Part shown: positions 18,901 to 60,639 of the stretch, in pieces
Layout of the letters: every line of letters begins with the position of its first letter
How positions within the stretch are numbered: the first letter of the stretch is position 1
Assembly (NCBI RefSeq): GCF_036971445.1
Contig: NC_091476.1
Location: 75,206,001-75,270,000, forward strand
DNA: 64,000 nt
Reading direction: 5' to 3'
Source: Narcine bancroftii
Taxonomy: Eukaryota
Translations under genes and position numbers: made by a program
Notes under the pieces: model-generated
What the model saw: the letters and a program-made list of their open reading frames with translations, nothing else
Databases searched by the model: none
What the model was told of the DNA's origin: nothing

Positions 18901-18943
18901 TCTTCCTTCCCGCCCTCCCCCTCCCTCTCTCCCTCTCCCTCAC

Positions 18944-18949
18944 CCCCAT
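18944..18949 (-). CDS. NAA40: NAA40 exon 1 coding part (MG), copy A
   Basis: CCGCC-ATG-GGG-gtgagg with strong Kozak; phase 0 joins exon 2; total CDS 717 nt = 238 aa. Confidence 0.88.
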
Positions 18950-19160
18950 GGCGGGACACAGGTTCAGAACCAGCCGGGCGGGCAGCGGGAGACGGCACTT
19001 CCGGTCCTTCCCGCCGAGGGGCCCCCGCTTCCGGTCCGTCCGCGCCGAGTCCGCCACTTCCGGCAGCGGCTCCGGTCTAAAGTGGAAGGTGTCGGCGGCG
19101 GAGGTAAAGCCCGGGGTCTGACCGTCGGAGTCGGGGGATGTTATCTTTCCCGGGCCCAGA
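18950..19160. promoter_or_regulatory. CpG-rich, probably bidirectional promoter with tandem ETS/GABPA sites (copy A)
   Basis: ACTTCCGG/GCTTCCGG at ~18998, 19028, 19056; high CpG; TATA-less. Confidence 0.8.
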
Positions 19161-19169
19161 ACCCGCTCC

Positions 19170-19350
19170 CACTGTGGGCCCTGAAACTGACCCCTAACCC
19201 CCAACCCACCGGGGCCCTGAACCTGACCCCTAACCCCTACCGTGGGCCCGAACCTGACCTCTAACCCCCACCGTGGGCCCTGAACTTGACCTCTAACCCC
19301 CTCCCACCGTGGGCCTGAACCTGACCTCTAACCCCCTCCCCCACTATGGG
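19170..19350. repeat. ~30-bp repeat with telomere-like CCCTAACCC/CTCTAACCC units (second copy 22435-22610)
   Basis: GTGGGCCCTGAACCTGACCTCTAACCCC about 5 times. Confidence 0.75.
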
Positions 19351-20667
19351 TCATGAGCCTGTCCTTTAACCACCCGACTTCCCCTCCCCATTGTGCGTCA
19401 TGAACCTAAGCCTCTCCCTTGTGGCTGTGTACCCTCCCCTACTTCCCTGTCAAGTCCCCCTGTCCCCTCCCTACCTCCAGGCCATCCACTCTCTCTCTTC
19501 CCCTGCAGAGTTGTTCCCTGACTCCAGTGACGATCCAACCGAACTGATTCCACAGCCGTCTCCTTCCAAGATGAAGGACACCCAGCCTCCACTCCTTGTT
19601 TCATCTATCTAACCCTTGTTCAAAGGTACTTTGATATTTATATTTCAGTCACTGCTAAGTGTTGTCTTGATGTTGAACCACCTTGTTTCATGATGCAAAC
19701 CAATGCTTGGTTTGTTATTTATTTGAAGAAATTATTACCAGTTGCTTGTAATGGAACCCTTCTTTGTAATCACCAATAGCTTGTAAACTCTTGATTTAGG
19801 AGAAACAGGTGATCAGAGGTTAGGCTGGGCTGAGAAGAGGAAGAATTTGATAGGCCAAAGACTTAAGAGAAACTCTTTGCCTTCCCATCAACTTATCTCA
19901 GGTTCTACTCACAAGGGGCAAATTGCACCAGCTCATTTAACCCCTCCAATCTTGCTGAGCTTCAGTGTGTGGAGACCAGAGCATAGGGGTGGGGGGAGGA
20001 AGAGGGGAGAAAGGGAAATGGGGGAAGGTCACACGTGTGAAAGTCAGCCCACACTGTAATAAAACAAACAGCAGAAGCCATTAAGTGGATGGCAGTTTCT
20101 TTGTTCAGTCTTGATAATGCTAGCGGGAGTGAGGGGTACAAAGAAGGAGTTTGGTAACTTGTTCTCTACACTGAGCCCCACTCCACTTTGACCCTACAAG
20201 TTTCACACGGCAGGCGTTCTCTATTTTTGCACGACATGTTCCCTATGACGTCTGCACATGGCTGGGAAATGTCAGGGTGTCCTCTTACTACATCTTTGTG
20301 GTGTTCCCACCACGTTACAAGGTAGCTATGTTCTCACCCAACTCATTAACCCTTTGTTAAGCATATTCGTTAAACTTATTCCTTCACACACACACACACA
20401 CACACACACAGGGAGAACGGGAAAACTCCGCACGCCACAGCGGCAGAGGTTGGGATCGAACCCGAGACTCTAGCATGGAGAGGTAGCAGCTCTCTGCACC
20501 ACTGTTCCGTCTTTCATGTTTGAACATTGAGATAACGCAGTAGAATCTTGGGGATTGGGTTGGTCCAGATTCTTAGGCAGTACTTTTAAAATTTGAATTT
20601 AAGGACGAATAAAGAAGAGATGAATGGGTAAATGTTGATAGTTTAATCATTGGCAAAGACAGCGTGC

Positions 20668-20962
20668 AGTAGCGTTCGTGTTACACAGGCGCAGGGAAGA
20701 ACGACACGCACGTTCTTGGAATCGAGGCTGGTTTATTGCTCTGGCTGTTGCCCTTATATGGGCCCTGGGCGCTGACATCAGGGCCCTGCGTCATCGTGCG
20801 CCGGCCTGGGATTGGCTGGTGTTCCCGCCACAGCTCCCCACCTTCCTGCCGTACGGGAGGTCACTGGGACGTACGGCCGATGTCACCCCAAGCTCTGTAC
20901 GGTTGCCGCGATAGTCAGCCATTTTGTGGGCTGGTCCGCGTCTCTGTGCGTGAGCCGGTACA
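20668..20962 (-). mobile_element. Solo LTR (Gypsy-like), copy A
   Basis: 4-bp TSD GTGC (20664-67 / 20963-66); termini (a)GTAGCG...CGGTACA; on the minus strand CCAAT, TATAA then AATAAA; CpG-rich. Confidence 0.75.
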
Positions 20963-21314
20963 GTGCTTTGTTTATCAAAACGAGGAGTTTTAAAGAAACA
21001 TAAAATCAACATTTGACAAAATGTAAACATAACATTTTTTTTTCATGTGTATACTTCTTGAAGTCATATTTAAAATGAAAATTGTAAAAGAAAAACACAG
21101 TTTATAAATGAAAGCAGAAGATATTTGGAGAACTGCGTGCAGTTCTGGTCACCTTACTTGAGAAAGGATGGACTGGCTTTGGAGGCAGTGGAGAGGAGGT
21201 TCACTGGGTTGATTCCAGGGAGGAGGAGGTTGGCCTATGAGGAGAGATTGAGTCATCTGGGACCGTACTCTCTGGAATTTAGAAGAATGAGAGGGGATCT
21301 TATGGAATCGTATA

Positions 21315-22162
21315 NNNNNNNNNNNNNNNNNNNNNNNNNNNNNNNNNNNNNNNNNNNNNNNNNNNNNNNNNNNNNNNNNNNNNNNNNNNNNNNNNNNNNN
21401 NNNNNNNNNNNNNNNNNNNNNNNNNNNNNNNNNNNNNNNNNNNNNNNNNNNNNNNNNNNNNNNNNNNNNNNNNNNNNNNNNNNNNNNNNNNNNNNNNNNN
21501 NNNNNNNNNNNNNNNNNNNNNNNNNNNNNNNNNNNNNNNNNNNNNNNNNNNNNNNNNNNNNNNNNNNNNNNNNNNNNNNNNNNNNNNNNNNNNNNNNNNN
21601 NNNNNNNNNNNNNNNNNNNNNNNNNNNNNNNNNNNNNNNNNNNNNNNCCACCCTCCCCCTCTTCCTGCNNNNNNNNNNNNNNNNNNNNNNNNNNNNNNNN
21701 NNNNNNNNNNNNNNNNNNNNNNNNNNNNNNNNNNNNNNNNNNNNNNNNNNNNNNNNNNNNNNNNNNNNNNNNNNNNNNNNNNNNNNNNNNNNNNNNNNNN
21801 NNNNNNNNNNNNNNNNNNNNNNNNNNNNNNNNNNNNNNNNNNNNNNNNNNNNNNNNNNNNNNNNNNNNNNNNNNNNNNNNNNNNNNNNNNNNNNNNNNNN
21901 NNNNNNNNNNNNNNNNNNNNNNNNNNNNNNNNNNNNNNNNNNNNNNNNNNNNNNNNNNNNNNNNNNNNNNNNNNNNNNNNNNNNNNNNNNNNNNNNNNNN
22001 NNNNNNNNNNNNNNNNNNNNNNNNNNNNNNNNNNNNNNNNNNNNNNNNNNNNNNNNNNNNNNNNNNNNNNNNNNNNNNNNNNNNNNNNNNNNNNNNNNNN
22101 NNNNNNNNNNNNNNNNNNNNNNNNNNNNNNNNNNNNNNNNNNNNNNNNNNNNNNNNNNNNNN
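21315..22162. other. Assembly gap (N runs)
   Basis: N characters. Confidence 0.99.
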
Positions 22163-22205
22163 TCTTCCTTCCCGCCCTCCCCCTCCCTCTCTCCCTCTCC
22201 CTCAC

Positions 22206-22211
22206 CCCCAT
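22206..22211 (-). CDS. NAA40: NAA40 exon 1 coding part (MG), duplicate copy B
   Basis: Identical to 18944-18949 within the duplicated block. Confidence 0.6.
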
Positions 22212-22420
22212 GGCGGGACACAGGTTCAGAACCAGCCGGGCGGGCAGCGGGAGACGGCACTTCCGGTCCTTCCCGCCGAGGGGCCCCCGCTTCCGGTCCG
22301 TCCGCGCCGAGTCCGCCACTTCCGGCAGCGGCTCCGGTCTAAAGTGGAAGGTGTCGGCGGCGGAGGTAAAGCCCGGGGTCTGACCGTCGGAGTCGGGGGA
22401 TGTTATCCTTTCCCGGGCCC
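22212..22420. promoter_or_regulatory. CpG/ETS promoter, copy B
   Basis: Same ACTTCCGG cluster as copy A. Confidence 0.7.
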
Positions 22421-22770
22421 AGAACCCGCTCCCACTGTGGGCCCTGAAACTGACCCCTAACCCCCAACCCACCGGGGCCCTGAACCTGACCCCTAACCCC
22501 TACCGTGGGCCCGAACCTGACCTCTAACCCCCACCGTGGGCCCTGAACTTGACCTCTAACCCCCTCCCACCGTGGGCCTGAACCTGACCTCTAACCCCCT
22601 CCCCCACTATGGGTCATGAGCCTGTCCTTTAACCACCCGACTTCCCTCCCCATTGTGCGTCATGAACCTAAGCCTCTCCCTTGTGGCTGTGTACCCTCCC
22701 CTACTTCCCTGTCAAGTCCCCCTGTCCCCTCCCTACCTCCAGGCCATCCACTCTCTCTCTTCCCCTGCAG

Positions 22771-22887
22771 AGTTGTTCCCTGACTCCAGTGACGATCCAA
22801 CCGAACTGATTCCACAGCCGTCTCCTTCCAAGATGAAGGACACCCAGCCTCCACTCCTTGTTTCATCTATCTAACCCTTGTTCAAAG
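22771..22887 (+). other. Candidate exon of a divergent spliced transcript (copy A equivalent ~19509-19625)
   Basis: ctctctctcttcccctgcag acceptor, AAG|gtactt donor; upstream donor GAG|gtaaag at 22366. Confidence 0.45.
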
Positions 22888-23931
22888 GTACTTTGGATAT
22901 TTATATTTCAGTCACTGCTAAGTGTTGTCTTGATGTTGACCACCTTGTGTTTCATGATGCAAACCAATGCTTGGTTTGTTATTTATTTGAAGAAATTATT
23001 ACCAGTTGCTTGTAATGGAACCCTTCTTTGTAATCACCAATAGCTTGTAAACTCTTGATTTAGGAGAAACAGGTGATCAGAGGTTAGGCTGGGCTGAGAA
23101 GAGGAAGAATTTGATAGGCCAAAGACTTAAGAGAAACTCTTTGCCTTCCATCAACTTATCTCAGGTTCTACTCACAAGGGGCAAATTGCACCAGCTCATT
23201 TAACCCCTCCAATCTTGCTGAGCTTCAGTGTGTGGAGACCAGAGCATGGGGTGGGGGGAGGGAAGAGGGGGAGAAAGGGAAATGGGGGAAGGTCACACGT
23301 GTGAAAGTCAGCCCACACTGTAATAAAACAAACAGCAGAAGCCATTAAGTGGATGGCAGTTTCTTTGTTCAGTCTTGATAATGCTAGCGGGAGTGAGGGG
23401 TACAAAGAAGGAGTTTGGTAACTTGTTCTCTACACTGAGCCCCACTCCACTTTGACCCTACAAGTTTCACACGGCAGGCGTTCTCTATTTTTGCACGACA
23501 TGTTCCCTATGACGTCTGCACATGGCTGGGAAATGTCAGGGTGTCCTCTTACTACATTCTTTGTGGTGTTCCCACCACGTTACAAGGTAGCTATGTTCTC
23601 ACCCAACTCATTAACCCTTTGTTAAGCATATTCGTTAAACTTATTCCTTCACACACACACACACACACACACAGGGAGAACGGGAAAACTCCGCACGCCA
23701 CAGCGGCAGAGGTTGGGATCGAACCCGAGACTCTAGCATGGAGAGGTAGCAGCTCTCTGCACCACTGTTCCGTCTTTCATGTTTGAACATTGAGAATAAC
23801 GCAGTAGAATCTTGGGGATTGGGTTGGTCCAGATTCTTAGGCAGTACTTTTAAAATTTGAATTTAAGGACGAATAAAGAAGAGATGAATGGGTAAATGTT
23901 GATAGTTTAATCATTGGCAAAGACAGCGTGC

Positions 23932-24222
23932 AGTAGCGTTCGTGTTACACAGGCGCAGGAAGAACGACACGCACGTCTTGGAATTGAGGCTGGTTTATTG
24001 CTCTGGCTGTTGCCCTTATATGGGCCCTGGGCGCTGACATCAGGGCCCTGCGTCATCGTGCGCCGGCCTGGGATTGGCTGGTGTTCCCGCCACAGCTCCC
24101 CACCTTCCTGCCGTACGGGAGGTCACTGGACGACGGCCGATGTCACCCCAAGCTCTGTACGGTTGCCGCGATAGTCAGCCATTTTGTGGGCTGGTCCGCG
24201 TCTCTGTGCGTGAGCCGGTACA
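23932..24222 (-). mobile_element. Solo LTR, copy B
   Basis: TSD GTGC 23928-31 / 24223-26. Confidence 0.7.
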
Positions 24223-24384
24223 GTGCTTTGTTTATCAAAACGAGGAGTTTTAAAGAAACATAAAATCAACATTTGACAAAAATGTAAACATAACATTTTT
24301 TTTTCATGTGTATACTTCTTGAAGTCATATTTAAAAATGAAAATTGTAAAAGAAAAACACAGTTTATAAATGAAAGCAGAAGAT

Positions 24385-24945
24385 ATTTGGAGAACTGCGT
24401 GCAGTTCTGGTCACCTTACTTGAGAAAGGATGGACTGGCTTTGGAGGCAGTGGAGAGGAGGTTCACTGGGTTGATTCCAGGGAGGAGGAGGTTGGCCTAT
24501 GAGGAGAGATTGAGTCATCTGGGACCGTACTCTCTGGAATTTAGAAGAATGAGAGGGGATCTTATGGAATCGTATAAATGATGAAAGGCAGAGATAAGAT
24601 AGAGGTTGGTAAGTTGTTCCCATTGGTGGGGGAGACCAGAATGAGGGGACGTAGCCTCAAGATCCAGGGGAGTAGATTTTGGATGGAGATGAGGGGGAAC
24701 TGCTTTCCCCAGAGGGTGGTGAATCTGTGGAATTCTCTGCCCATTGAAACAGTGGGGCGACCTCAGTAAATGTATTTAAGACCAGGTTGGAGAGATTTTA
24801 CATCATCGGGGAATTAAGGGATATGGGAAAAGGCAGGTCGGTGGAGATGAGCCCATCATTAGATCAGCCATGATCTAGTTGAATGGCGGGACACGGTCGA
24901 TGGACCGAATGGCTGGCTCCTGCTCCTGTTTCTTATGTTCTTATT
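24385..24945 (+). mobile_element. CR1 3' fragment
   Basis: [23 protein letters not shown]; tail TTCTTATG. Confidence 0.85.
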
Positions 24946-34859: not shown

Positions 34860-35560
34860 TGTCACAAAATTTGATGTTTAGTGGCAGCTTTCACAGGTGC
34901 AAACATTTCTACAAATCACATTTCAAAATGAATCAAAATAGTGCAAGAAAAGGAAAAGTCAAAGTGAGGACGTTGTCTGTGGTTCAGGAGTTGGATGGCA
35001 GAGGGGAAGAAGCTGTCCTTGTGCCGCTGGGTGCTCGTCTTCAGGCTCATGGACCTTTTCCCCAATGGTAGCAGAGTGAAGAGGGCATGGCCTGGGTGGT
35101 GGGGGGTCCTTGAGGAGAGAGACTGCTTTCTTAACACACCACCTCCTGTAGATGTCCTCGATGGAGTGGAATCTGGTGCCCGTGATGGCACAGGCCATCA
35201 ATCTAATGATGGAACTGGTCAGAAACCTCTCATGGTACACCTGTTGATGCTTTTGAGAATCTTTGGTGACATACTGAATCTCCTCAAATAGTCCCCAGGA
35301 AAGATCCTTTGAGATGTTGACACCCAGGAATGTGAAGTTCTCAACCCTCTCCACTACTGAGCCCTCGATGAGGACTGGGTCGTCTTCCCCTGATTTCCCC
35401 CTCCTTAAATCCACAATCATCTCCTTGGTTTTGGTAACGTTGAATGCAAGGTTGTTGTTGTGACACCACTCACCGAGCAGATCTATTTCCCTCCTGTACG
35501 CTCCCACATTGCTGTGATGTCCTCGGAAAATTTGTAGACAGCATTTGAATTGTGCCATCC
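34860..35560 (-). mobile_element. Rex1/Babar-like LINE fragment
   Basis: WCHNNNLAFNVTKTKEMIVD, HPGHALFTLLPLGKR..KDSFFPSAIQLLN. Confidence 0.85.
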
Positions 35561-36212: not shown

Positions 36213-36629
36213 ATGGGTGGCGCTGTTCAGACTGGGTTGCCTAGTATGGACTGCATTGGACTGTCTTGGTGTGGCTATTTCTAGCTTGGACTGTGGTATC
36301 AGTTGGCAGTATTGTGGATTGGTTGGTGTTGCCCCAGAGCAGGGTGCACTGTGGCAGATTAGACTGCCTCCCGTCTCTGACATTGCCTGTGCCCTGTCCA
36401 GGTTGTTCTGACTTGCATTGCCTTAAGTCATATTTAATGGGAGTTGCTATTGACATATGTGATTGGGAATGAATGTTTTGGGTTGCTCTCTCTGCTGCTT
36501 GCCTTGATGTCGGAAGAGGACAGGTTACCTTTGCTGGGCGGGGATAGGGGGGTGTGTCACCATGCTTTGGATTGGTTGGATGGGTTACCTTGCTGTCAGT
36601 TGAGTATGGATCACTTTGTGTTAGCCTGC

Positions 36630-39600
36630 GCTTGTGCTGACTTGTGTTGGCCTGCGTTGACTTGGATCGACTTGTGTTGGCCTGCACTGACTTGGGTTGA
36701 CTTGTGTTGGCCTGCGCTGACTTTGATTGACTTGTGTTGGCCTGCGCTGACTTGGATTGGCTTGTGTTGGCCTGCGCTGACTTGGATTGACTTGTGTTGG
36801 CCTGCACTGACTTGGATTGACTTGTGTTGGCCTGCGCTGATGTAGATTGACTTGTGTTGGCCTGCGCTGACTTGGATTGACTTGTGTTGGGCTGCGCTGA
36901 CTTGGATTGACTTGTGTTGGGCTGCGCTGACTTGGATTGACTTGTGTTGGGCTGCGCTGACTTGGATTGACTTGTGTTGGGCTGCACTGACTTGGATTGA
37001 CTTGTGTTGGGCTGCGCTGACTTGGATTGACTTGTGTTGGGCTGCGCTGACTTGGATTGACTTGTGTTGGGCTGCGCTGACTTGGATTGACTTGTGTTGG
37101 CCTGCGCTGATGTAGATTGACTTGTGTTGGCCTGCGCTGACTTGGATCGACTTAGATTGATTTGTGTTGGCCTGCGCTGACTTGGATTGAATTGTGTTGG
37201 TCTGCGCGACTTGGATTGATTTGTGTTGGCCTGCGCTGACTTAGATTGACTCATGCTGGCCTGCGCGACTTGGATTGACTTGGATTGATTTGTGTTGGCC
37301 TGCGCGACTTGGATTGATTTGTGTTGGCTTGCGCTGACTTGACTTGGATTGAATTGTGTTGGGCTGCGCTGACTTGGATTGACTTGTGTTGGCCTGCGCT
37401 GAATTGGATTTACTTGTGTTGGCCTGCGCTGAATTGGATTGACTTGTGTTGGCCTGCACTGACTTGGATTGACCTGTGTTGGCTTGCGTTGACTTGGATT
37501 GACTTGTGTTTGGCTGCGCTGACTTGGATTGACTTGTGTTGGGCTGCGCTGACTTGGATTGACTTGTGTTGGGCTGCGCTGACTTGGATTGACTTGTGTT
37601 GTGCTGTGCTGACTTGGATTGACTTGTGTTGGGCTGCGCTGACTTGGATTGACTTGTGTTGGCCTGCGCTGATGTAGATTGACTTGTGTTGGCCTGCGCT
37701 GACTTGGATTGACTTGTGTTGGGCTGCGCTGACTTGGATTGACTTGTGTTGGGCTGCGCTGACTTGGATTGACTTGTGTTGGGCTGCGCTGACTTGGATT
37801 GACTTGTGTTGGGCTGCGCTGACTTGGATTGACTTGTGTTGGGCTGCGCTGACTTGGATTGACTTGTGTTGGCCTGCGCTGATGTAGATTGACTTGTGTT
37901 GGCCTGCGCTGACTTGGATCGACTTAGATTGATTTGTGTTGGCCTGCGCTGACTTGGATTGATTTGTGTTGGCCTGCGCTGACTTGGATTGATTTGTGTT
38001 GGCCTGCGCTGACTTGGATTGATTTGTGTTGGCCTGCGCGACTTGGATTGACTTGGATTGATTTGTGTTGGCCTGCGCTGACTTGGATTGACTCGTGTTG
38101 GCCTGCGCGACTTGGATTGATTTGTGTTGGCTTGCGCTGACTTGACTTGGATTGAATTGTGTTGGGCTGCGCTGACTTGGATTGACTTGTGTTGGCCTGC
38201 GCTGAATTGGATTTACTTGTGTTGGCCTGCGCTGAATTGGATTGACTTGTGTTGGCCTGCGCTGACTTGGATTGACCTGTGTTGGCTTGCGTTGACTTGG
38301 ATTGACCTGTGTTGGCCTGGGCTGACTTGGATTGACTTGTGTTGGGCTGTGCTGACTTGGATTGACTTGTGTTGGGCTGTGCTGACTTGGATTGACTTGT
38401 GTTGGGCTGCGCTGACTTGTGTTGGCTTGGATTGACTTGTGTTGGCTTGGATTGACTTGTGTTGGCTTGGATTGACTTGTGTTGGCTTGGTTTGACTTGT
38501 GTTGGCTTGGATTGACTTGTGTTGGCTTGGATTGACCTGCACTTTCTTGGATTGACTTGTGTTGGCGTGCACTAACTTGGATTGACTTGTGTTGGCGTGC
38601 ACTGACTTGGATTGACTTGTGTTGGGCTGCACTGACTTGAATTGACTTGTGTTGGGCTGCGCTGACTTGAATTGACTTGTGTTGGTCTGCGCTGACTTGA
38701 ATTGACTTGTGTTGGTCTGCGCTGACTTGGATTGACTTGTGTTGGCCTGCTCTGACTTGGATTGACCTGTGTTGGCTTGCTTTGATGTGGATTGACTTGT
38801 GTTGGCCTGCACTGACTTGGATTGACTTGTGTTGGCCTGCACTGACTTGGATTGACTTGTGTTGGGCTGCGCTGACTTGGATTGACTTGTGTTGGGCTGC
38901 ACTGACTTGAATTTACTTGTGTTGGGTTGCGCTGACTTGGATTGATTTGTGTTGGGCTGCGCTGACTTGTGTTGGCTTGGATTGACTTGTGTTGGCTTGG
39001 ATTGACTTGTGTTGGCTTGGATTAACTTGTGTTGGCTTGGTTTGACTTGTGTTGGCTTGGTTTGACTTGTATTGGCTTGGATTGACTTGTGTTGGCTTGG
39101 ATTGACTTGTGTTGGCTTGGATTAACTTGTGTTGGCTTGGATTGACTTGTGTCGCTTGGATTGACTTATGTTGGCTTGGATTGACCTGCACTTTCTTGGA
39201 TTGACTTGTGTTGGCGTGCACTAACTTGGATTGACTTGTGTTGGCGTGCACTGACTTGGATTGACTTGTGTTGGGCTGCACTGACTTGAATTGACTTGTG
39301 TTGGGCTGCGCTGACTTGAATTGACTTGTGTTGGTCTGCGCTGACTTGAATTGACTTGTGTTGGTCTGCGCTAACTTGGATTGACTTGTGTTGGCCTGCT
39401 CTGACTTGGATTGACCTGTGTTGGCTTGCTTTGATGTGGATTGACTTGTGTTGGCCTGCACTGACTTGGATTGACTTGTGTTGGCCTGCACTGACTTGGA
39501 TTGACTTGTGTTGGGCTGCGCTGACTTGGATTGACTTGTGTTGGGCTGCACTGACTTGAATTTACTTGTGTTGGGTTGCGCTGACTTGGATTGATTTGTG

Positions 39601-41520
39601 TTGGCCTGCGCTGACTTGGATTGACCTGTGTTGGCTTGCGTTGACTTGGATTGACTTGTGTTGGGCTGTGCTGACTTGGATTGACTTGTGTTGGGCTGTG
39701 CTGACTTGGATTGACTTGTGTTGGGCTGCGCTGACTTGTGTTGGCTTGGATTGACTTGTGTTGGCTTGGATTGACTTGTGTTGGCTTGGATTGACTTGTG
39801 TTGGCTTGGTTTGACTTGTGTTGGCTTGGTTTGACTTGTGTTGGCTTGGTTTGACTTGTGTTGGCTTGGATTGACTTGTGTTGGCTTGGATTGACTTGTG
39901 TTGGCTTGTATTAACTTGTGTTGGCTTGGATTAACTTGTGTTGGCTTGGATTGACTTGTGTGGCTTGGATTGACTTATGTTGGCTTGGATTGACCTGCAC
40001 TTTCTTGGATTGACTTGTGTTGGCGTGCACTAACTTGGATTGACTTGTGTTGGCGTGCACTGACTTGAATTGACTTGTGTTGGGCTGCACTGACTTGAAT
40101 TGACTTGTGTTGGGCTGCGCTGACTTGAATTGACTTGTGTTGGTCTGACTTGTGTTGGGCTGCACTGACTTGAATTGACTTGTGTTGGGCTGCGCTGACT
40201 TGAATTGACTTGTGTTGGTCTGCGCTGACTTGAATTGACTTGTGTTGGTCTGCGCTGACTTGGATTGACTTGTGTTGGCCTGCTCTGACTTGGATTGACC
40301 TGTGTTGGCTTGCTTTGATGTGGATTGACTTGTGTTGGCCTGCACTGACTTGGATTGACTTGTGTTGGCCTGCACTGACTTGGATTGACTTGTGTTGGGC
40401 TGCGCTGACTTGGATTTACTTGTGTTGGGTTGCGCTGACTTGGATTGATTTGTGTTGGGCTGCGCTGACTTGAATTGACTTGTGTTGGTCTGCGCTGACT
40501 TGGATTGACTTGTGTTGGCTTGCTCTGACTTGGATTGACTTGTGTTGGCTTGGATTGACTTGTGTTGGCTTGGATTGACTTGTGTTGGCTTGGATTGACC
40601 TGCACTTTCTTGGATTGACTTGTGTTGGTCTGCGCTGACTTGAATTGACTTGTGTTGGTCTGCGCTGACTTGGATTGACTTGTGTTGGCCTGCTCTGACT
40701 TGGATTGACCTGTGTTGGCTTGCTCTGATGTGGATTGACTTGTGTTGGCTTACACTGACTTGGATTGACTTGTGTTGGCCTGCTCTGACTTGGATTGACC
40801 TGTGTTGGCTTGCTCTGATGTGGATTGACTTGTGTTGGCTTACACTGACTTGGATTGACTTGTGTTGGCCTGCACTGACTTGGATTGACTTGTGTTGGGC
40901 TGCACTGACTTGAATTGACTTGTGTTGGTCTGCGCTGACTTGGATTGACTTGTGTTGGCCTGCTCTGACTTGGATTGACCTGTGTTGGCTTGCTCTGATG
41001 TGGATTGACTTGTGTTGGCTTACACTGACTTGGATTGACTTGTGTTGGCCTGCTCTGACTTGGATTGACCTGTGTTGGCTTGCTCTGATGTGGATTGACT
41101 TGTGTTGGCTTACACTGACTTGGATTGACTTGTGTTGGCCTGCACTGACTTGGATTGACTTGTGTTGGGCTGCACTGACTTGAATTTACTTGTGTTGGGT
41201 TGCGCTGACTTGGATTGATTTGTGTTGGGCTGCGCTGACTTGGATTGACTTGTGTTGGTCTGCGCTGACTTGGATTGACTTGTGTTGGTCTGCGCTGACT
41301 TGGATTGACTTGTGTTGGTCTGCGCTGACTTGGATTGACTTGTGTTGGTCTGCGCTGACTTGGATTGACTTGTGTTGGCTTGCTCTGACTTGGATTGACT
41401 TGTGTTGGCTTGGATTGACTTGTGTTGGCTTGGATTGACCTGCACTTTCTTGGATTGACTTGTATGGGCCTGCGTTGATTTGGATTGACTTGTGTTGGCC
41501 ATGCGTTGACTTGGATTGAC
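36630..41520. repeat. ~4.9-kb satellite, 30-bp unit GACTTGGATT-GACTTGTGTT-GGCCTGCGCT with 20-bp variant and higher-order blocks
   Basis: Visible tandem array. Confidence 0.98.
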
Positions 41521-42859
41521 ATGTGTTATGTTGACTTGTATTCATTTGTGTTGGCTTGTATTGACCTACGTTGACCTATGTTGACTTGTATTTATCTGTA
41601 TTGACTTGCATTACCCTATATTGATGTGTGTTGACCTGTGTTGACCCGTTGCCCTGCATTGCCCTGCATTGGTTTTCTTTGACTTTTTGGCTTTTGTTTA
41701 CTTGTGTTGGCCTGCATTGCCTTGCATTGATTTTGTGTTATGTCCTTGTCTAGATTGTGTTGTCACACTGGGTTGTGCCATCTTGAACTGCGTTGTGGCA
41801 TCTACTAATGGGCTACAATTTTATGAATGTCTTTCCTTTTCAGGGTTTGATGGACTTTATCTTAGATTGGGTTCCAATCTCCTGGTTAAGGATGCTGACT
41901 CTTGATGCGATTGATCTGCCATAGACTGGGTGACCTTATCTAAAGTGGGTTTATTGCATAGTTTCAGATTGCATGTTTCGCTTTGGAATGGCTCTTATTA
42001 TCCGCAGTTGGACTGGGTGCATCGGTTTGCTTGGGGTATGTTGTCACAATCAGGATTGTAGTGGAATTGTGCTCCCCCCCCCCCCCCCCCCCACCCCACC
42101 CCACTGGATTGCAAGGCAATGATTGACATGGCCTATCAAATTAGATAGAGCTCAACATTCTGGGCTGGGTGAATCTTACTTGTATTGACGTGGTTTGTGG
42201 GATCTGTAGTTTGGGACTGAATTGGAGATTCTTAGACTGGAGTGTGATGTGTTGATTTAACCGATCGGATGGCGTTATCTTGCATCATCTTGGTTTGGGA
42301 CGTTGAGTGAAGAGTTGGGCTGCATTATTTTAAATTGGCTTATGCTGTTTTAAATGAAATCAGTCTCTTGCGTTGTGTTGCGTGACCTTGAGCGCTATAC
42401 TACACTGGGCTCATTTGAGTTGTCTGACTGACTCACATCATGTGGGAGTCGGTTGCTATGAATGGGTGGCGTGGTTTGGACCGAATGGCGTGGTTGCAGG
42501 GGGTGATTCTCCACGGGATAGTACAGACCACCTTGTATTGTCTTGGGACAGATAGCGCCATCTCGGTGCATTGCATTAGGTTGCAATGTCTCCGACTGGA
42601 TTACACCTGAGTGTGGGCTGTTTTTCGTCGGATTGTATTCTCCTGGATTGGGTTTGTGTTGACCTCAAATGAACCTCGAATCCACTCCTCCCCACTTCCT
42701 GTGGCTTCAAAGCTAAAATTACACCCACCATTGGAGCAGGTGCTGCTACTGGATTGGACCTGGACCACCCTGGACTGCATTCAAAGGACGAGCCTAGCCA
42801 CTCCCACCTCTTTCCTCCTTCCTCTCCCAATCCCACCTTCCATCTCCTTTCCATTCTTC

Positions 42860-44640: not shown

Positions 44641-45169
44641 TCTATACCCCTCCTTCACCTATCCCAATTCCTCCACCCCTCCCAATTCTCTCACCCCACC
44701 ACACCCTCCTCACCCCCACTCACCCATTCCCTTCAATATACCTTCCCTCTCAATACCACCTCTCCCCCACACCTCCTCCAACACCACCACCCTTCAACTC
44801 AACCCCCCCCTCCACATGCTCTCACCCCTCTCCTCACCCCCACCCTACCTTCTCCATCCTCCCCTCCCAACCCCTCAGCCCACTCCCCCTACACTCTCCA
44901 CCACTGGAACCCATTACCAGCCCCTCCATTGTCTCCTGCCCCCAGGTCGATGCACTCCCCCCATCTCCTGCCGCAAACAAGACCCCAGTTTGCATCAAAG
45001 TCAATGCAAGGAGGGGCCTCCGGTTTTCCTCCCCAATCCCCCTGGGATTTACCCCTCCATCATCCCCAGGAGCTTTCCACCCCCCCATCCCCCCCAGAAC
45101 CAGCACCCGATCCCCCCCAGGACCAGCCCCCCACCCCCCCCAGGATCTGCCCCCCACCCCCCCAGGACC

Positions 45170-47010
45170 TGCCATCCTATTCCCCGAGACGTGCCATCCT
45201 ATTCCCCGAGACGTGCCATCCTATGACCCCCGAGACGTGCCATCCAATGACCCCCGAGACGTGCCATCCAATGACCCCCGGGACGTGCCATCCTAGGACC
45301 CCCGGGACGTGCCATCCTAGGACCCCCGAGACGTGCCATCCTAGGACCCCCGAGACGTGCCATCCTAGGACCCCCGAGACGTGCCATCCTAGGACCCCCG
45401 AGACGTGCCATCCTAGGACCCCCGAGACGTGCCATCCTAGGACCCCCGAGACGTGCCATCCTAGGACCCCCGAGACGTGCCATCCTAGGACCCCCGAGAC
45501 GTGCCATCCTAGGACCCCCGAGACGTGCCATCCTAGGACCCCGAGACGTGCCATCCTAGGACCCCCGAGACGTGCCATCCTAGGACCCCCGAGACGTGCC
45601 ATCCTAGGACCCCCGAGACGTGCCATCCTAGGACCCCCGAGACGTGCCATCCTAGGACCCCCGAGACGTGCCATCCTATGACCCCCGAGACGTGCCATCC
45701 TATGACCCCCGAGACGTGCCATCCTATGACCCCCGAGACGTGCCATCCTATGACCCCCGAGACGTGCCATCCTATGACCCCCGAGACGTGCCATCCTATG
45801 ACCCCCCGAGACGTGCCATCCTATGACCCCCGAGACGTGCCATCCTATGACCCCCGAGACGTGCCATCCTGTGACCCCCGAGACGTGCCATCCTGTGACC
45901 CCCGAGACGTGCCATCCTGTGACCCCCGAGACGTGCCATCCTGTGACCCCCGAGACGTGCCATCCTGTGACCCCCGAGACGTGCCATCCTGTGACCCCCG
46001 AGACGTGCCATCCTGTGACCCCCGAGACGTGCCATCCTGTGACCCCGAGACGTGCCATCCTGTGACCCCCGAGACGTGCCATCCTGTGACCCCGAGACGT
46101 GCCATCCTGTGACCCCCGAGACGTGCCATCCTGTGACCCCGAGACGTGCCATCCTGTGACCCCCGAGACGTGCCATCCTGTGACCCCGAGACGTGCCATC
46201 CTGTGACCCCCGAGACGTGCCATCCTGTGACCCCCGAGACGTGCCATCCTGTGACCCCCGAGACGTGCCATCCTGTGACCCCCGAGACGTGCCATCCTGT
46301 GACCCCCGAGACGTGCCATCCTGTGACCCCCGAGACGTGCCATCCTGTGACCCCCGAGACGTGCCATCCTGTGACCCCCGAGACGTGCCATCCTGTGACC
46401 CCCGAGACGTGCCATCCTGTGACCCCCGAGACGTGCCATCCTGTGACCCCCGAGACGTGCCATCCTGTGACCCCCGAGACGTGCCATCCTGTGACCCCCG
46501 AGACGTGCCATCCTGTGACCCCCGAGACGTGCCATCCTGTGACCCCCGAGACGTGCCATCCTGTGACCCCCGAGACGTGCCATCCTGTGACCCCCGAGAC
46601 GTGCCATCCTGTGACCCCGAGACGTGCCATCCTGTGACCCCCGAGACGTGCCATCCTGTGACCCCCGAGACGTGCCATCCTGTGACCCCGAGACGTGCCA
46701 TCCTGTGACCCCCGAGACGTGCCATCCTGTGACCCCCGAGACGTGCCATCCTGTGACCCCCGAGACGTGCCATCCTGTGACCCCCGAGACGTGCCATCCT
46801 GTGACCCCCGAGACGTGCCATCCTGTGACCCCCGAGACGTGCCATCCTGTGACCCCCGAGACGTGCCATCCTGTGACCCCCGAGACGTGCCATCCTGTGA
46901 CCCCCGAGACGTGCCATCCTGTGACCCCCGAGACGTGCCATCCTGTGACCCCGAGACGTGCCATCCTGTGACCCCCGAGACGTGCCATCCTGTGACCCCC
47001 GAGACGTGCC
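45170..47010. repeat. 24-bp minisatellite CCCCCGAGACGTGCCATCCTGTGA, ~76 copies
   Basis: Highly homogeneous array; copy number estimated as span/24. Confidence 0.98.
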
Positions 47011-47394: not shown

Positions 47395-47771
47395 GATGAG
47401 CCAATGGCATGGCAGGAGTGCGACGCGCATGGACAGCAGGGAGGGAGGAGGTGGTGCGGCGGGCGGATGGCTCCGGCCGGAGAGCAGGGGCGGTGAGGCG
47501 GCGCTGCCGGCACTACTTGCGGCCGGCGGGGCTCATTGTGCGGGCCGGACCGGAGCGGCGGCGGCGGGGACTGGGACCGGTAGCCGGCTAGGGGGCAGCC
47601 CAGCTGGCGGGGTCGGGGCACTGGGACCCGGCACGGGGCAGCCCAGCCGGCACCGAGGAAGCCCCGTGGTCTCCGTTCACTTGACCCAGCGCCAGGGGAC
47701 GGGGCAGAGGCGGCGGGAGCTGGAATAAAGGGGGAGGCGACGAGGGGCTGCGTGAGGCCGGCGGCTGGCAG
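47395..47771 (+). promoter_or_regulatory. RCOR2: CpG island / probable RCOR2 promoter and non-coding first exon
   Basis: CCAAT at ~47402, GGGCGG boxes, dense CpG, candidate donors CAG|gcaagt (47772) or GAG|gtgggt (47785); the ATG exon at 58917 has an acceptor and so needs an upstream exon. Confidence 0.65.
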
Positions 47772-47779
47772 GCAAGTGG

Positions 47780-56711: not shown

Positions 56712-58000
56712 ATCAGAATCAGGACGTATGTACAGTCATAATCAAGTCATAAAATTGGGTGTTTTGGGGCAGTGTCATAATGCAAACATGCATATTATAA
56801 CCATCTTACTATTAATAATAAAAATAATAGGGGCACGAAAAGTGAGGCCGTGTCTGGGGGTCGTTGTCCATTCAGGAACCTGATGGCGGAGGGGAAGAAG
56901 CTGTCCTTGTGCCGCTGGGAGTTCGTCTTCAGGCTCCTGGACCTTCACTGATGGTAGCAGAGTAAAGAGGGCATGGCCTGGGGTGGGGGGGTAGGGTCTT
57001 TGAGGATAGAGGCTGCTTTTTAAAGACACCGCCTTGTGTAGATGTCCTCGATGGAGTGGAGTCTGGTGCCCTCTGTAGCTCCCTCACCCCCAGACCAACC
57101 CCCCCCAGCCCCACTCCCTGGAGGTCCCTCGCCACTTACCCAGGTCCGAGCACTGTACCACCTGTATATGGCACTGGCATCCAAATGGGCAGGTGGGGTA
57201 GTCGTAGCGCCTGTCTGAGGGCAGGAGGGTGGGCTCCAACTCCACCTCGTCGGCTGACCCCTCATCATTCTGCATGGCCGCCAGCGAGTCCGCAAAGTCC
57301 AGGAACTCGTGCTGAATGAAGTGGGTGGCGCCACAGCCAATCAGGAGGCAGGACAGGAGGAGGAGGTGGGCTGCCATGGCAGTCGAGCAAGGTGGGCAAG
57401 GGTCCTTCATGTCGCGGTCCAACCTGTGTTGGGTGAGATGGATGTCGTCAGGATCCAGGCGGGGATCGGCAGGAGGGTGAGCCCAGGGTTGTGAAGGGGA
57501 TAAGTTCGACGCGAGATTCTGCAGACACCGGGGTTGAAGTAAAAACACATGATATTGGAGAAACTCAGCAAGTCAGATAGTTCCTTTATACAGCAAAGAT
57601 GCAGAACCAAAAAAAAAAGAACCAGTCAATGATGCAACCAGCCAGAATGCTCTCCATAGTACCACCTGTAGAAGTTTTCAAGCGTCTTCGGTGATGTACC
57701 GAATCTCCTCAGACGTTTCATTGGCGAGCCTTCTTTGTGACTGCCTCATCGTGGAGGCTCCAGGACAGATCCTCGGTGATGTTGTCACCCACGAATTTGA
57801 GGTTCTTGACCCTCTCCACTGCTGAGCCCCTCGATGAGGACTGGATCGTGTTCCCCTGACTCCCTCCTGAAGCCCACATCATCTCCTTGGTTTTGCTGAC
57901 ATTGAGCACAAGGTTGTTGTCATGGCACCACCCACCGAGCTGATCTGTCTCCTTCCTGCAAGCTTCCTCATTGCCGTTTGTAAAACTGTTGACAACTGTG
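56712..58000 (-). mobile_element. Rex1/Babar-like LINE split into 56712-57070 and 57620-58000
   Basis: Both parts are colinear with the copy at 34860-35560. Confidence 0.8.
57140..57377 (-). CDS. Orphan first coding exon of a class I SLRP (biglycan/decorin-like)
   Basis: MAAHLLLLSCLLIGCGATHFIQHEFLDF..MQNDEG..CPFGCQCHIQVVQCSDL(G): signal peptide, propeptide, CX3CXCX6C; phase-1 G|gtaagt donor; acceptor acacag just upstream of 57423. No further exons seen. Confidence 0.88.
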
Positions 58001-58379
58001 GCTAGGAAAGGGGTCAAACACCTTGGTCTTTATGAAGGAATGGGCAGAAGAGCCTGCTTCCGTGCTCTAGAACTAAGGTGCTGAGCAGCCACCATTTGTA
58101 TTGAACAATGGGGCAGCCTTGAGGGATGAGCCAGCTTCCACTCTCCCGACCCCATCGGGAAATCGGGGCTGTTCATCTGTGCTCTCCCCGTGGAACACAG
58201 GATTGGATGCTCCTGGTTCGCTAATCCAGTACACCGGGGAGTGGGAGGCATGATTCGCAGTGAAATGTGGATGGATTTGGAGCAGGAGGAAGGGAGCGCA
58301 GGGTGGCAACAGAATGGGAAAGGTTCCAGGGGTGTGGGCCCAGCAGAGAAGCCAGCAAGAGCGGCACTCCTATTGTAGT

Positions 58380-58700: not shown

Positions 58701-58918
58701 GAGTGCCCTCCAATTTGCTGGTGTGGCAGATCACGAGGCCATGGACCAACGGGTTGGCAAGGGAATGGGATTGGGGGGGTGGGGTTGAAGTGGGTGCGCA
58801 CTGGCTCTGTTTGACGAGCTGGCTGCAGGAGGGGATGGGCTGAAGGGGCCATCTTGGTGCCTCAGAACCCGGTGACCGACTGTCTCCCATCTTGTTCCCC
58901 CTCCCCCCACTTGCAGTG

Positions 58919-59108
58919 ATGCCGGTGATGATGGAGAAGTCGGGCACGGCAGGAATTCTGTCCCGAGGAGTCAGGATGAAGGGGATGAACAACGGGAGCC
59001 AACAAGTACGAGACTCTGAGGAGGAGAGCAGTGACGAGGAGCGGCCGCATACCACCATGTCGGTCGTTTCCATCGAGTGGAAGAAGCGGGAGCAGCATGG
59101 CCTGCACG
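58919..59108 (+). CDS. RCOR2: REST corepressor 2, first coding exon
   Basis: MPVMMEKSGTAGILSRG..NGSQ..EEESSDEERPH resembles human MPSVMEKPSAGSGILSRS..DDSSEEEHSH; acceptor ttgcag at 58916, donor CACG|gtgggc; synteny with NAA40. Confidence 0.87.
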
Positions 59109-59941
59109 GTGGGCACTTCCATCTTAGTCAGTCCCGCTTTTACATCCTCGGGTATGGTGGGTGTAGTGCCCAGCGATGCTCCTGCCCCCTTCCCCACCCC
59201 CCCAGTGCCCTCTCAATTTGGCCTCTCGGTGCCCCCGGATCCTGCCCACTTTGGTACCCACTGCCCTGGTTCTGCCCCCGTTGGAATCCCCTTGCCTCTG
59301 GATCTGCCCCTGTTGGAATCCCCTGCCTCGAGGTCCACCCTGTCAGTGCCCCCGCCCCTGGATCTGCCCCCCTCAATGCCCACTGCCCCTAGATCTGCTC
59401 CCGGTGCCATATGGATCCTGCCCCCCTCGGGGCCCCTGGCCCTGTCCCTCTTGGGGCACCTGGATCCTCCCCTCCCTCCCCCCACGCAGGTGCCGCTGAA
59501 CTGCCCCATGGGGTCACTGACCCTGGATCCTACCCCACCCCCCCCCTCCCCATCTTGAGCCCCCATTCCCCCACTTGGGCTCCCATGGTACCTCTAGACC
59601 CTTCCCCTGGACCCCCTACCCCAACCCCCCACTTGCGGCCGCCCCTCCCCTGTGATCCTACCCCTCCCAGCCCTAAATCCTGCCCCTCCTAGCCCCATTT
59701 CCCTTTTATTCTAGCCCTATCTACCCTCCTTATATTTATCTTTCCCCTCCTCCGCTCTCTCGCCCCGTCCCCCTCAACCAATTTACCCATTCCCCCTCCT
59801 CCTCCCCGCCATTCCTACCTGCCGCTCTTCCCTTCCTTGCCATCTTCCCACCCCCCGCCACTCTTCTCTACCCCCCCCCCCCCCCATTTTTCTATGAGCT
59901 GTATTCCAGTAAATTTGTGTCTTGTTCTCTGTTCTGTCCAG

Positions 59942-59998
59942 ACAGCATGATCCGCGTTGGATCCGATTACCAGGCAGTGGTCCCAGAGTGTCACCCAG
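59942..59998 (+). CDS. RCOR2: RCOR2 next coding exon (start of ELM2 domain); gene continues beyond the window
   Basis: ctgtccag / CAG|gtagga; DSMIRVGSDYQAVVPECHP, 57 bp. Confidence 0.93.
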
Positions 59999-60639
59999 GT
60001 AGGAATTCTGTGGGTAAGAAGAGAAGAACCTCAGAGGGTTGAAATGTGAGGGAAGGAGTAACATTGAAACGCTGCCTGCCCTCTGGGTGGGGTGTGGGTG
60101 GGGGCTGTAGGAGAGAGGAAACCTCACGTTTCAGTGGAGAAGCCCGTTGACAGAGGCAATGATCTCAAGGTGACCTTGGGGAGACCAACGGATGCTGGAA
60201 AATCTCAGCAGGTCGGGAAACATCTGTTGGGAGAGAAGCAGTCAGTGCTTTTGCTCTGATTTTTCGACAGCACTGCGCAAGGGAAAGTCGCTGGTAGCAA
60301 AGAAGGTCGGGAAGGGATGTGCAGATCAAAGGGAGGTTTCTGTGATAAAGGCTTAATGGGGCATTTCGTATCCCTGGGCCTATGTCATGACTTCAGGTGA
60401 GGCTGGATTAAAAAAAAACAAGGAAATGGAAAATGCTGGACACTCTCCGCAGGCTGGGCAGCATCTGTGGATAGAGAATTATGTTTTGGAGGAGGCAGCA
60501 CGCACTGGTGAGGGAGTTCTCCTCACATACCGAACGGGCTTGGAGGTGAACCTCAGTGGGCATTTTATTTTCGTCGGTCACAGGTTGCCAGGTCACGTTG
60601 AACAATAGGTGCGTTCAATTGGCCAATCGGCCTCTCGTC

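Follow-up and report, generated by a model that had tools for sequence, protein, structure and literature searches.

An insert of 550 bases, whose exon likely duplicates the first coding exon of the biglycan gene (BGN), was found in the genome of Narcine bancroftii within a decayed LINE. It is probably a non-functional, one-exon duplicate that was pasted into the already dead element by end-joining break repair, i.e. a class 2 templated insertion. All positions given without a contig name refer to the window, which is the whole 64,000-nt stretch of DNA that was analyzed (C17:75206001-75270000). The features of the locus are collected in Table 1.

Table 1. Features of the insert and its surroundings (window coordinates).
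Feature	Position	Strand	Remarks
LINE 3' half (end of ORF and 3' UTR), decayed non-LTR retrotransposon	56715..57070	-	9743 candidates; top genomic copies ~81-83% identical
Donor-side intron flank of the exon	57071..57139	-	X4 contig with RNA-type letters follows the intron to 57132
Likely copy of the biglycan first coding exon	57140..57423 (coding 57377-57140)	-	8/260 differences vs. the abundant spliced contig of X5 and X7
Acceptor-side intron flank	57424..57517	-	covered by X5 and X7 contigs with few differences
Arm (93 nt) of a hairpin-type non-coding repeat present in high copy	57518..57610	+	cut at 57610
Junction filler, 10 nt (eight A, then GA)	57611..57620	+	GAACCA thereby stands twice around the A run
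LINE 5' half (end of RT domain), 5'-truncated	57621..58001	-	~82-84% identity to top copies; 8399 candidates
Host RCOR gene (likely RCOR2), coding exons 1 and 2	58918..60000	+	ELM2 match, translation

Identity of the exon

A preliminary description had reported a stop-free, 238-nt coding exon, flanked by intron sequence and complete with both splice sites; it was seen on the minus strand at 57423-57140 (284 nt including the non-coding part). An AG acceptor is located at 57425-57424 and a GTAAGT donor follows 57140. The ATG is found at 57377, with a second, in-frame ATG upstream at 57410, and the frame closes at SDL-G in phase 1. The product comprises a signal peptide, an FxQxxFxDF propeptide, a (D/E)EGSA sequence, and an N-terminal Cys cluster. 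Its match to Pfam LRRNT (E = 5e-4) was weaker than the curated cut-off. Biglycan and decorin were the only matches in a PDB search with this product. Of 50 candidates for longer protein relatives, one (P0001) matched; biglycan was the top structure match of that protein, and its nearest named relatives were shark and ray biglycans. When the window exon was compared to first-exon products using blastp, scores of 95.5 bits (Heterodontus BGN) and 70.9 bits (Mobula BGN) were obtained, and the SLRPs of the same genome scored lower (DCN1, 61.6; DCN2, 36.6; ASPN, 33.9). A phylogeny with chondrichthyan class I SLRPs, which had been proposed as a check, left the placement unsettled, as the exon-only tree (18 rows) did not resolve it; the five nearest rows by path were shark/ray-type BGN. 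Taken at the level of sequence, the window exon likely duplicates biglycan coding exon 1. With chondrichthyan biglycan (cluster B of Gil et al., 2025, PMC11917481), it shares the signal peptide, FxQxxFxDF propeptide, (D/E)EGSA sequence, Cys cluster, and phase-1 exon end. The window exon departs from that gene in being a single exon devoid of LRRs, in lying beside RCOR and MARK-type genes instead of ATP2B, and in having His for Pro.

Two properties that had been held to be telling lost their weight. The missing Ser-Gly is no peculiarity, because (D/E)EGSA occupies the GAG-site position in 5/5 named shark and ray biglycans. Nor does the intactness of the exon indicate function: after 7 substitutions, a frame without stops would still be expected in ~75% of cases, and codon 19, which encodes Pro in the RNA-type contig (see below) and in 8/8 of the closest biglycan rows, now encodes His.

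Structure of the insert

The insert replaces 68 nt of the LINE. It had been read as an exon with short intron flanks; this description needs correction for 57518-57610, which belongs instead to a separate, high-copy non-coding repeat. In its other genomic copies, this hairpin-type repeat normally continues differently beyond the point matching 57610. The arm was likely carried over from the parent biglycan intron. At the opposite end, 57071-57081 is ambiguous, resembling a spot within the deleted piece of the LINE. One junction features a run of 10 A on the + strand, two of which belong to the repeat arm, and none of the 11 polyadenylation hexamers tested lies upstream of this run. No shared 5-mer flanks the insert; hence, there is no target-site duplication.

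The host LINE

The LINE family is presumably of the Rex1/Babar clade. Its ORFs encode a non-LTR reverse transcriptase with a PF09004-type C-terminal region, as that clade would have (RVT_1 in 5/7 ORFs, PF09004 in 4/7). The exon does sit between two colinear halves of one LINE, as had been stated: the halves are on the same strand and in register but for the 68 missing nt. A second copy of the element in the window (34983-35515) is colinear with both, 56871-57071 corresponding to 34983-35181 and 57628-57711 to 35205-35286. The earlier comparison to 34860-35560 was therefore sound with respect to colinearity and misleading with respect to the missing length, which is 68 nt, not 23, since that copy has a deletion of its own. 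For a genomic survey, 87 LINE loci were taken as the top matches of three genome searches with self matches excluded. The two halves were side by side in 70 of them, with a spacing of exactly 68 nt in 47 of these 70.

The window halves were at distances of 0.199 and 0.160 from family copies, for which the family means were 0.173 +/- 0.018 and 0.153 +/- 0.013; both divergences are therefore within 1.5 standard deviations of the means. The correlation of left-half and right-half distances over 33 copies was near -0.14 for the intact and the chimeric controls alike and is confounded by copy choice. In principle, the two pieces could have inserted independently, to the left and right of an exon that came by other means, given that the family is very abundant (see the candidates in Table 1) and that a target-site duplication for the LINE as a whole was not recognized. 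This course of events is extremely unlikely, however, as it would leave to coincidence the shared strand, the register interrupted only by the 68 missing nt, and the similar divergence from the family; it would also call for a separate event to cut the 3' end of the upstream piece.

The LINE is 16-20% diverged, compared to ~3% for the insert, and so was probably long dead and a mere recipient. The element was thus probably a landing site, not a vector, and already dead when the insert arrived. The exon had been thought to be captured into a LINE at the DNA level; an unspliced, genomic, one-exon piece is indeed present in one LINE copy. Host sequence can come to lie beside a LINE by 3' transduction or as a processed pseudogene. 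The present insert differs from both: it is located in mid-LINE, not behind the tail, it is unspliced, and the LINE is far older than it.

The host gene and the window

The host gene on the + strand is an RCOR gene (ELM2, REST_helical, and Myb domains). It is arranged tail to tail with a MARK-type kinase gene, and a GT43 gene is situated ~160 kb away (domains seen in both cases). From the synteny with these two genes, we take the host to be RCOR2; a 20-residue PDB search with the RCOR gene returned weak matches to CoREST3 and CoREST1 alone. An acceptor precedes the ATG at 58919, and a GC donor near 47771 closes a CpG-rich stretch. Judged by these signals, the insert would lie in the first intron of the RCOR gene. 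The location "antisense in RCOR2 intron 1" given previously thus stands for the RCOR host and the opposite strand; RCOR2 is the likely identity by synteny, and intron 1 would follow from the splice signals.

Other observations were made in this region. The CpG-rich stretch (47400-47775), with the GC-type donor at its end, is a candidate non-coding first exon of RCOR and is adjoined by a 24-nt satellite (45159-47010). In the first coding exon (58918-59160), no donor is present right after the acidic stretch, where the mammalian RCOR exon serves as the comparison; phase-1 donors are found at 59031, 59109, and 59157, so this exon may exceed its mammalian counterpart in length. A tandem duplicate of ~2.4 kb (18901-21314 and 22163-24576, within 18901-24576) is 99.1% identical, with N blocks before each copy, and a tandem repeat of ~5 kb (36616-41739; period near 30 nt) contains long, spurious open frames. 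Retrovirus- or LTR-element-like frames occur just upstream of the window (L080:2446-5928; zinc knuckle, aspartyl protease, and RNase H) and at L075:214-1698 (protease and RT).

Search for the remainder of the biglycan gene

The BGN LRR exons were not found in the window, 200 kb downstream, or 100 kb upstream (364 kb around the exon), which bears out and extends the earlier statement that none lies downstream in the window. The window contains 1787 nt of N in four blocks, which leave room for hidden exons. Genome-wide, the LRR exons of BGN were also not found (109/213, 117/117, and 111/223 candidates scored). A DNA search of the genome, which had been recommended as the route to a parent gene, did not lead to one: no close second copy of the exon and no other BGN exon were found. 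DCN1 (C23), ASPN (C11:41.5 Mb), and DCN2 (C11:254.08 Mb), on the other hand, were each found exon by exon, each with such an exon of its own.

The last of these is a complete fourth class I SLRP gene, located at C11:254081486-254094010 between two single-ORF SLRP-like genes. According to the available text of Gil et al. (2025, PMC11917481), cartilaginous fishes have four such genes (aspn, bgn, dcn1, and dcn2), the chondrichthyan dcn2 occupies a position like that of C11:254081486-254094010, and bgn is highly expressed in catshark tissues. The locus at C11:254.08 Mb was rejected as the parent of the exon, since the gene there is complete, occupies the dcn2 position, and has a first exon of its own.

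Only three ATP2B loci were found (on C11 and C23), beside the DCN1, DCN2, and ASPN clusters; none was on C17, and a fourth was not found in the assembly. In sharks, BGN (cluster B) is linked to an ATP2B gene; the window exon is not linked to one in this manner. G6PD, which in human also lies in the Xq28 block, is present at C8:326.27 Mb, and this speaks against a loss of the entire Xq28-type block. No BGN was detected in alternate 10-kb pieces sampling 200 kb around G6PD, and SSR4/TRAP-delta was not found in the assembly in a search that had no positive control. That an expressed BGN, a fourth ATP2B locus, and SSR4 were not found while G6PD is present suggests a local gap in the assembly or a stretch outside the sequence searched.

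A second, spliced sequence type

Contigs from four of the 11 listed sequencing runs (X1, X4, X5, and X7) were compared with the window. None of the 11 is on record as RNA; X5 and X7 were guessed to be of this type. Each of these two runs contains a 372-nt contig (depth 748-780) that covers 57138-57397 and differs from the window at 8/260 positions. At the donor, the contig parts from the window to continue for 112 nt; exon 3 of DCN2 in the same genome is 113 nt long. Flank contigs of X5 and X7, by comparison, had 0/473 and 0/307 differences from the window (Fisher test vs. the exon, p = 2e-4 and 2e-3). A 609-nt contig of X5 matches 57399-57610 with five differences and one gap; it departs exactly at the start of the filler, and its other 396 nt extend beyond the match to the window. 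In the DNA run X1, a contig over 57200-57547 showed 0 differences, so the window letters are real DNA. Run X4 (organism B) contains both types in non-overlapping contigs, the RNA type over 57132-57289 and letters identical to the window over 57298-57455; at codon 19 (His for Pro), X4 shares the letter of the window. Two exon copies would accordingly be present in X4, although the contigs do not overlap.

The contrast between the exon (8/260) and its flanks (0/473 and 0/307) points to a separate locus as the likely expressed biglycan gene, one that this assembly lacks. It is through contigs of X5 and X7 (RNA type guessed) that this putative parent locus shows itself. Use of the donor at 57140 had been named as a test; splicing there is seen in X5 and X7, with the same proviso on RNA type, for the version that differs by ~3%, and not for the window letters. 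No X5 or X7 contig carries the window letters and none covers 57086-57137, but contigs drop rare variants, so silence of the window exon is not implied. Of the eight exon differences, seven were scored, four changing a residue and three being silent; pN (0.022) is less than pS (0.055), but these 4 and 3 changes are too few to test and both lineages are mixed in them. The idea of an undescribed class I SLRP paralogue fails on the best match, which is chondrichthyan biglycan, and on the onward splicing of the ~3%-different version in X5 and X7. On exon sequence, which is ~97% identical to that version, it does not form a lineage distinct from BGN, DCN1, DCN2, and ASPN.

It was also considered that this could be the only biglycan exon of the animal, or could mark where a fifth class I gene begins, with the RNA differences being allelic or between populations. 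No other BGN-type exon was found in the assembly, the frame and both splice sites are intact, and the RNA samples differ from a DNA run that matches the window, all of which would suit such a view. It is nonetheless very unlikely in light of flanks with 0 differences next to an exon with 8/260 in the same RNA-type runs, an RNA-type intron that departs from the window at 57610, and the lack of an LRR exon within 200 kb downstream; further, the neighbors are unlike those of BGN cluster B in the available text of PMC11917481.

The placement of the insert within the LINE is taken from the assembly alone. No contig among the compared runs spans either insert junction, and joints across the insert in run contigs could stem from other LINE copies. 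The assembler might have joined into the LINE a piece of biglycan whose true place is a GC-rich region of poor assembly, a notion that agrees with the failure to find the rest of BGN in the assembly and with a window that is satellite-rich and harbors a 99% tandem duplicate. Such a misassembly is nevertheless improbable. Two sequence types ~3% apart exist, the LINE halves resume in register with repair-type filler between them, and a misjoin would not turn a conserved Pro into a His that X4 shares.

Origin of the insert

The position in mid-LINE, the loss of 68 nt, the filler, and the absence of a target-site duplication fit a class 2 templated insertion. A double-strand break would have occurred in the already decayed LINE, likely in the first intron of RCOR2, and a stretch templated on the biglycan locus would have filled it at the cost of 68 nt of the LINE. 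Genomic DNA is favored as the template, from which unspliced pre-mRNA would be indistinguishable. Synthesis-dependent microhomology joining may have produced the 10-nt filler. The resulting copy, having neither upstream nor downstream biglycan exons, would then have begun to drift.

Class 2 templated sequence insertions (TSI/TSIP), as characterized in the available text of Onozawa and Aplan (2016, PMC5110952), are likewise a few hundred bases long and have a distant locus as their template; they have no target-site duplication or poly(A) signal, are accompanied by target deletion and non-templated junction bases, and leave the donor intact. In the present case, there is a 68-nt loss in place of a target-site duplication, and end joining has left its marks in that deletion, the 10-nt filler, and the doubled GAACCA. 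None of the 11 hexamers was present, yet a 10-A run was. The candidate for a distant, intact donor is the ~3%-different spliced version in X5 and X7, whose locus was not found in the assembly. The insert is longer (550 nt) than the 73-414 nt of the cell-line series in the same source (PMC5110952, available text). It is also older (~3% diverged), is found in a ray, includes a whole coding exon, landed in a dead LINE, and has a short A run at one junction. A deletion with short, apparently templated filler is also typical of the SD-MMEJ products in the available text of PMC2943611; here, this holds for one junction only, and a 6-nt repeat is no proof of polymerase theta action.

Alternatively, reverse transcription of an unspliced RNA antisense to biglycan, starting at a short A tail, could have placed the piece in the LINE copy. 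The 10 A that end the insert at one junction on the + strand are compatible with this proposal. So are the enrichment of templated insertions for transcribed donors and their reduction by RT inhibitors (PMC5110952, available text), as well as the high expression of bgn in catshark tissues (PMC11917481, available text). Retrotransposition is still unlikely: two of the ten A are part of the repeat arm, the filler repeats GAACCA, 68 nt of the target were lost, and neither a target-site duplication nor a polyadenylation hexamer is present. Accordingly, the insert lacks the hallmarks of a class 1 TSI or retrotransposed copy, namely, a target-site duplication of at least 5 bp and a polyadenylation signal 10-30 nt before the A tract.

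Significance

The insert is likely a stray, single-exon duplicate of a known sort, the result of an ordinary repair accident and not a new gene. A literature search, which covered few subscription journals, returned no report of this insertion and none pairing the genus with biglycan. There is a very slim chance that the window exon was kept because it is used, being spliced into an RCOR-antisense transcript to yield a short secreted peptide or an exon-shuffled protein with the biglycan signal peptide and Cys cap; if true, this would be a gene caught at birth through break repair. The locus has two implications, neither of which is surprising to specialists. It is an annotation trap, as the only biglycan exon found in the assembly is this one while the expressed gene is apparently missing. 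It is also natural raw material for exon shuffling, in that a whole signal-peptide exon and its splice sites were moved without splicing or a transposon vector; splicing of this exon into a transcript, if true, would raise the importance of the finding.
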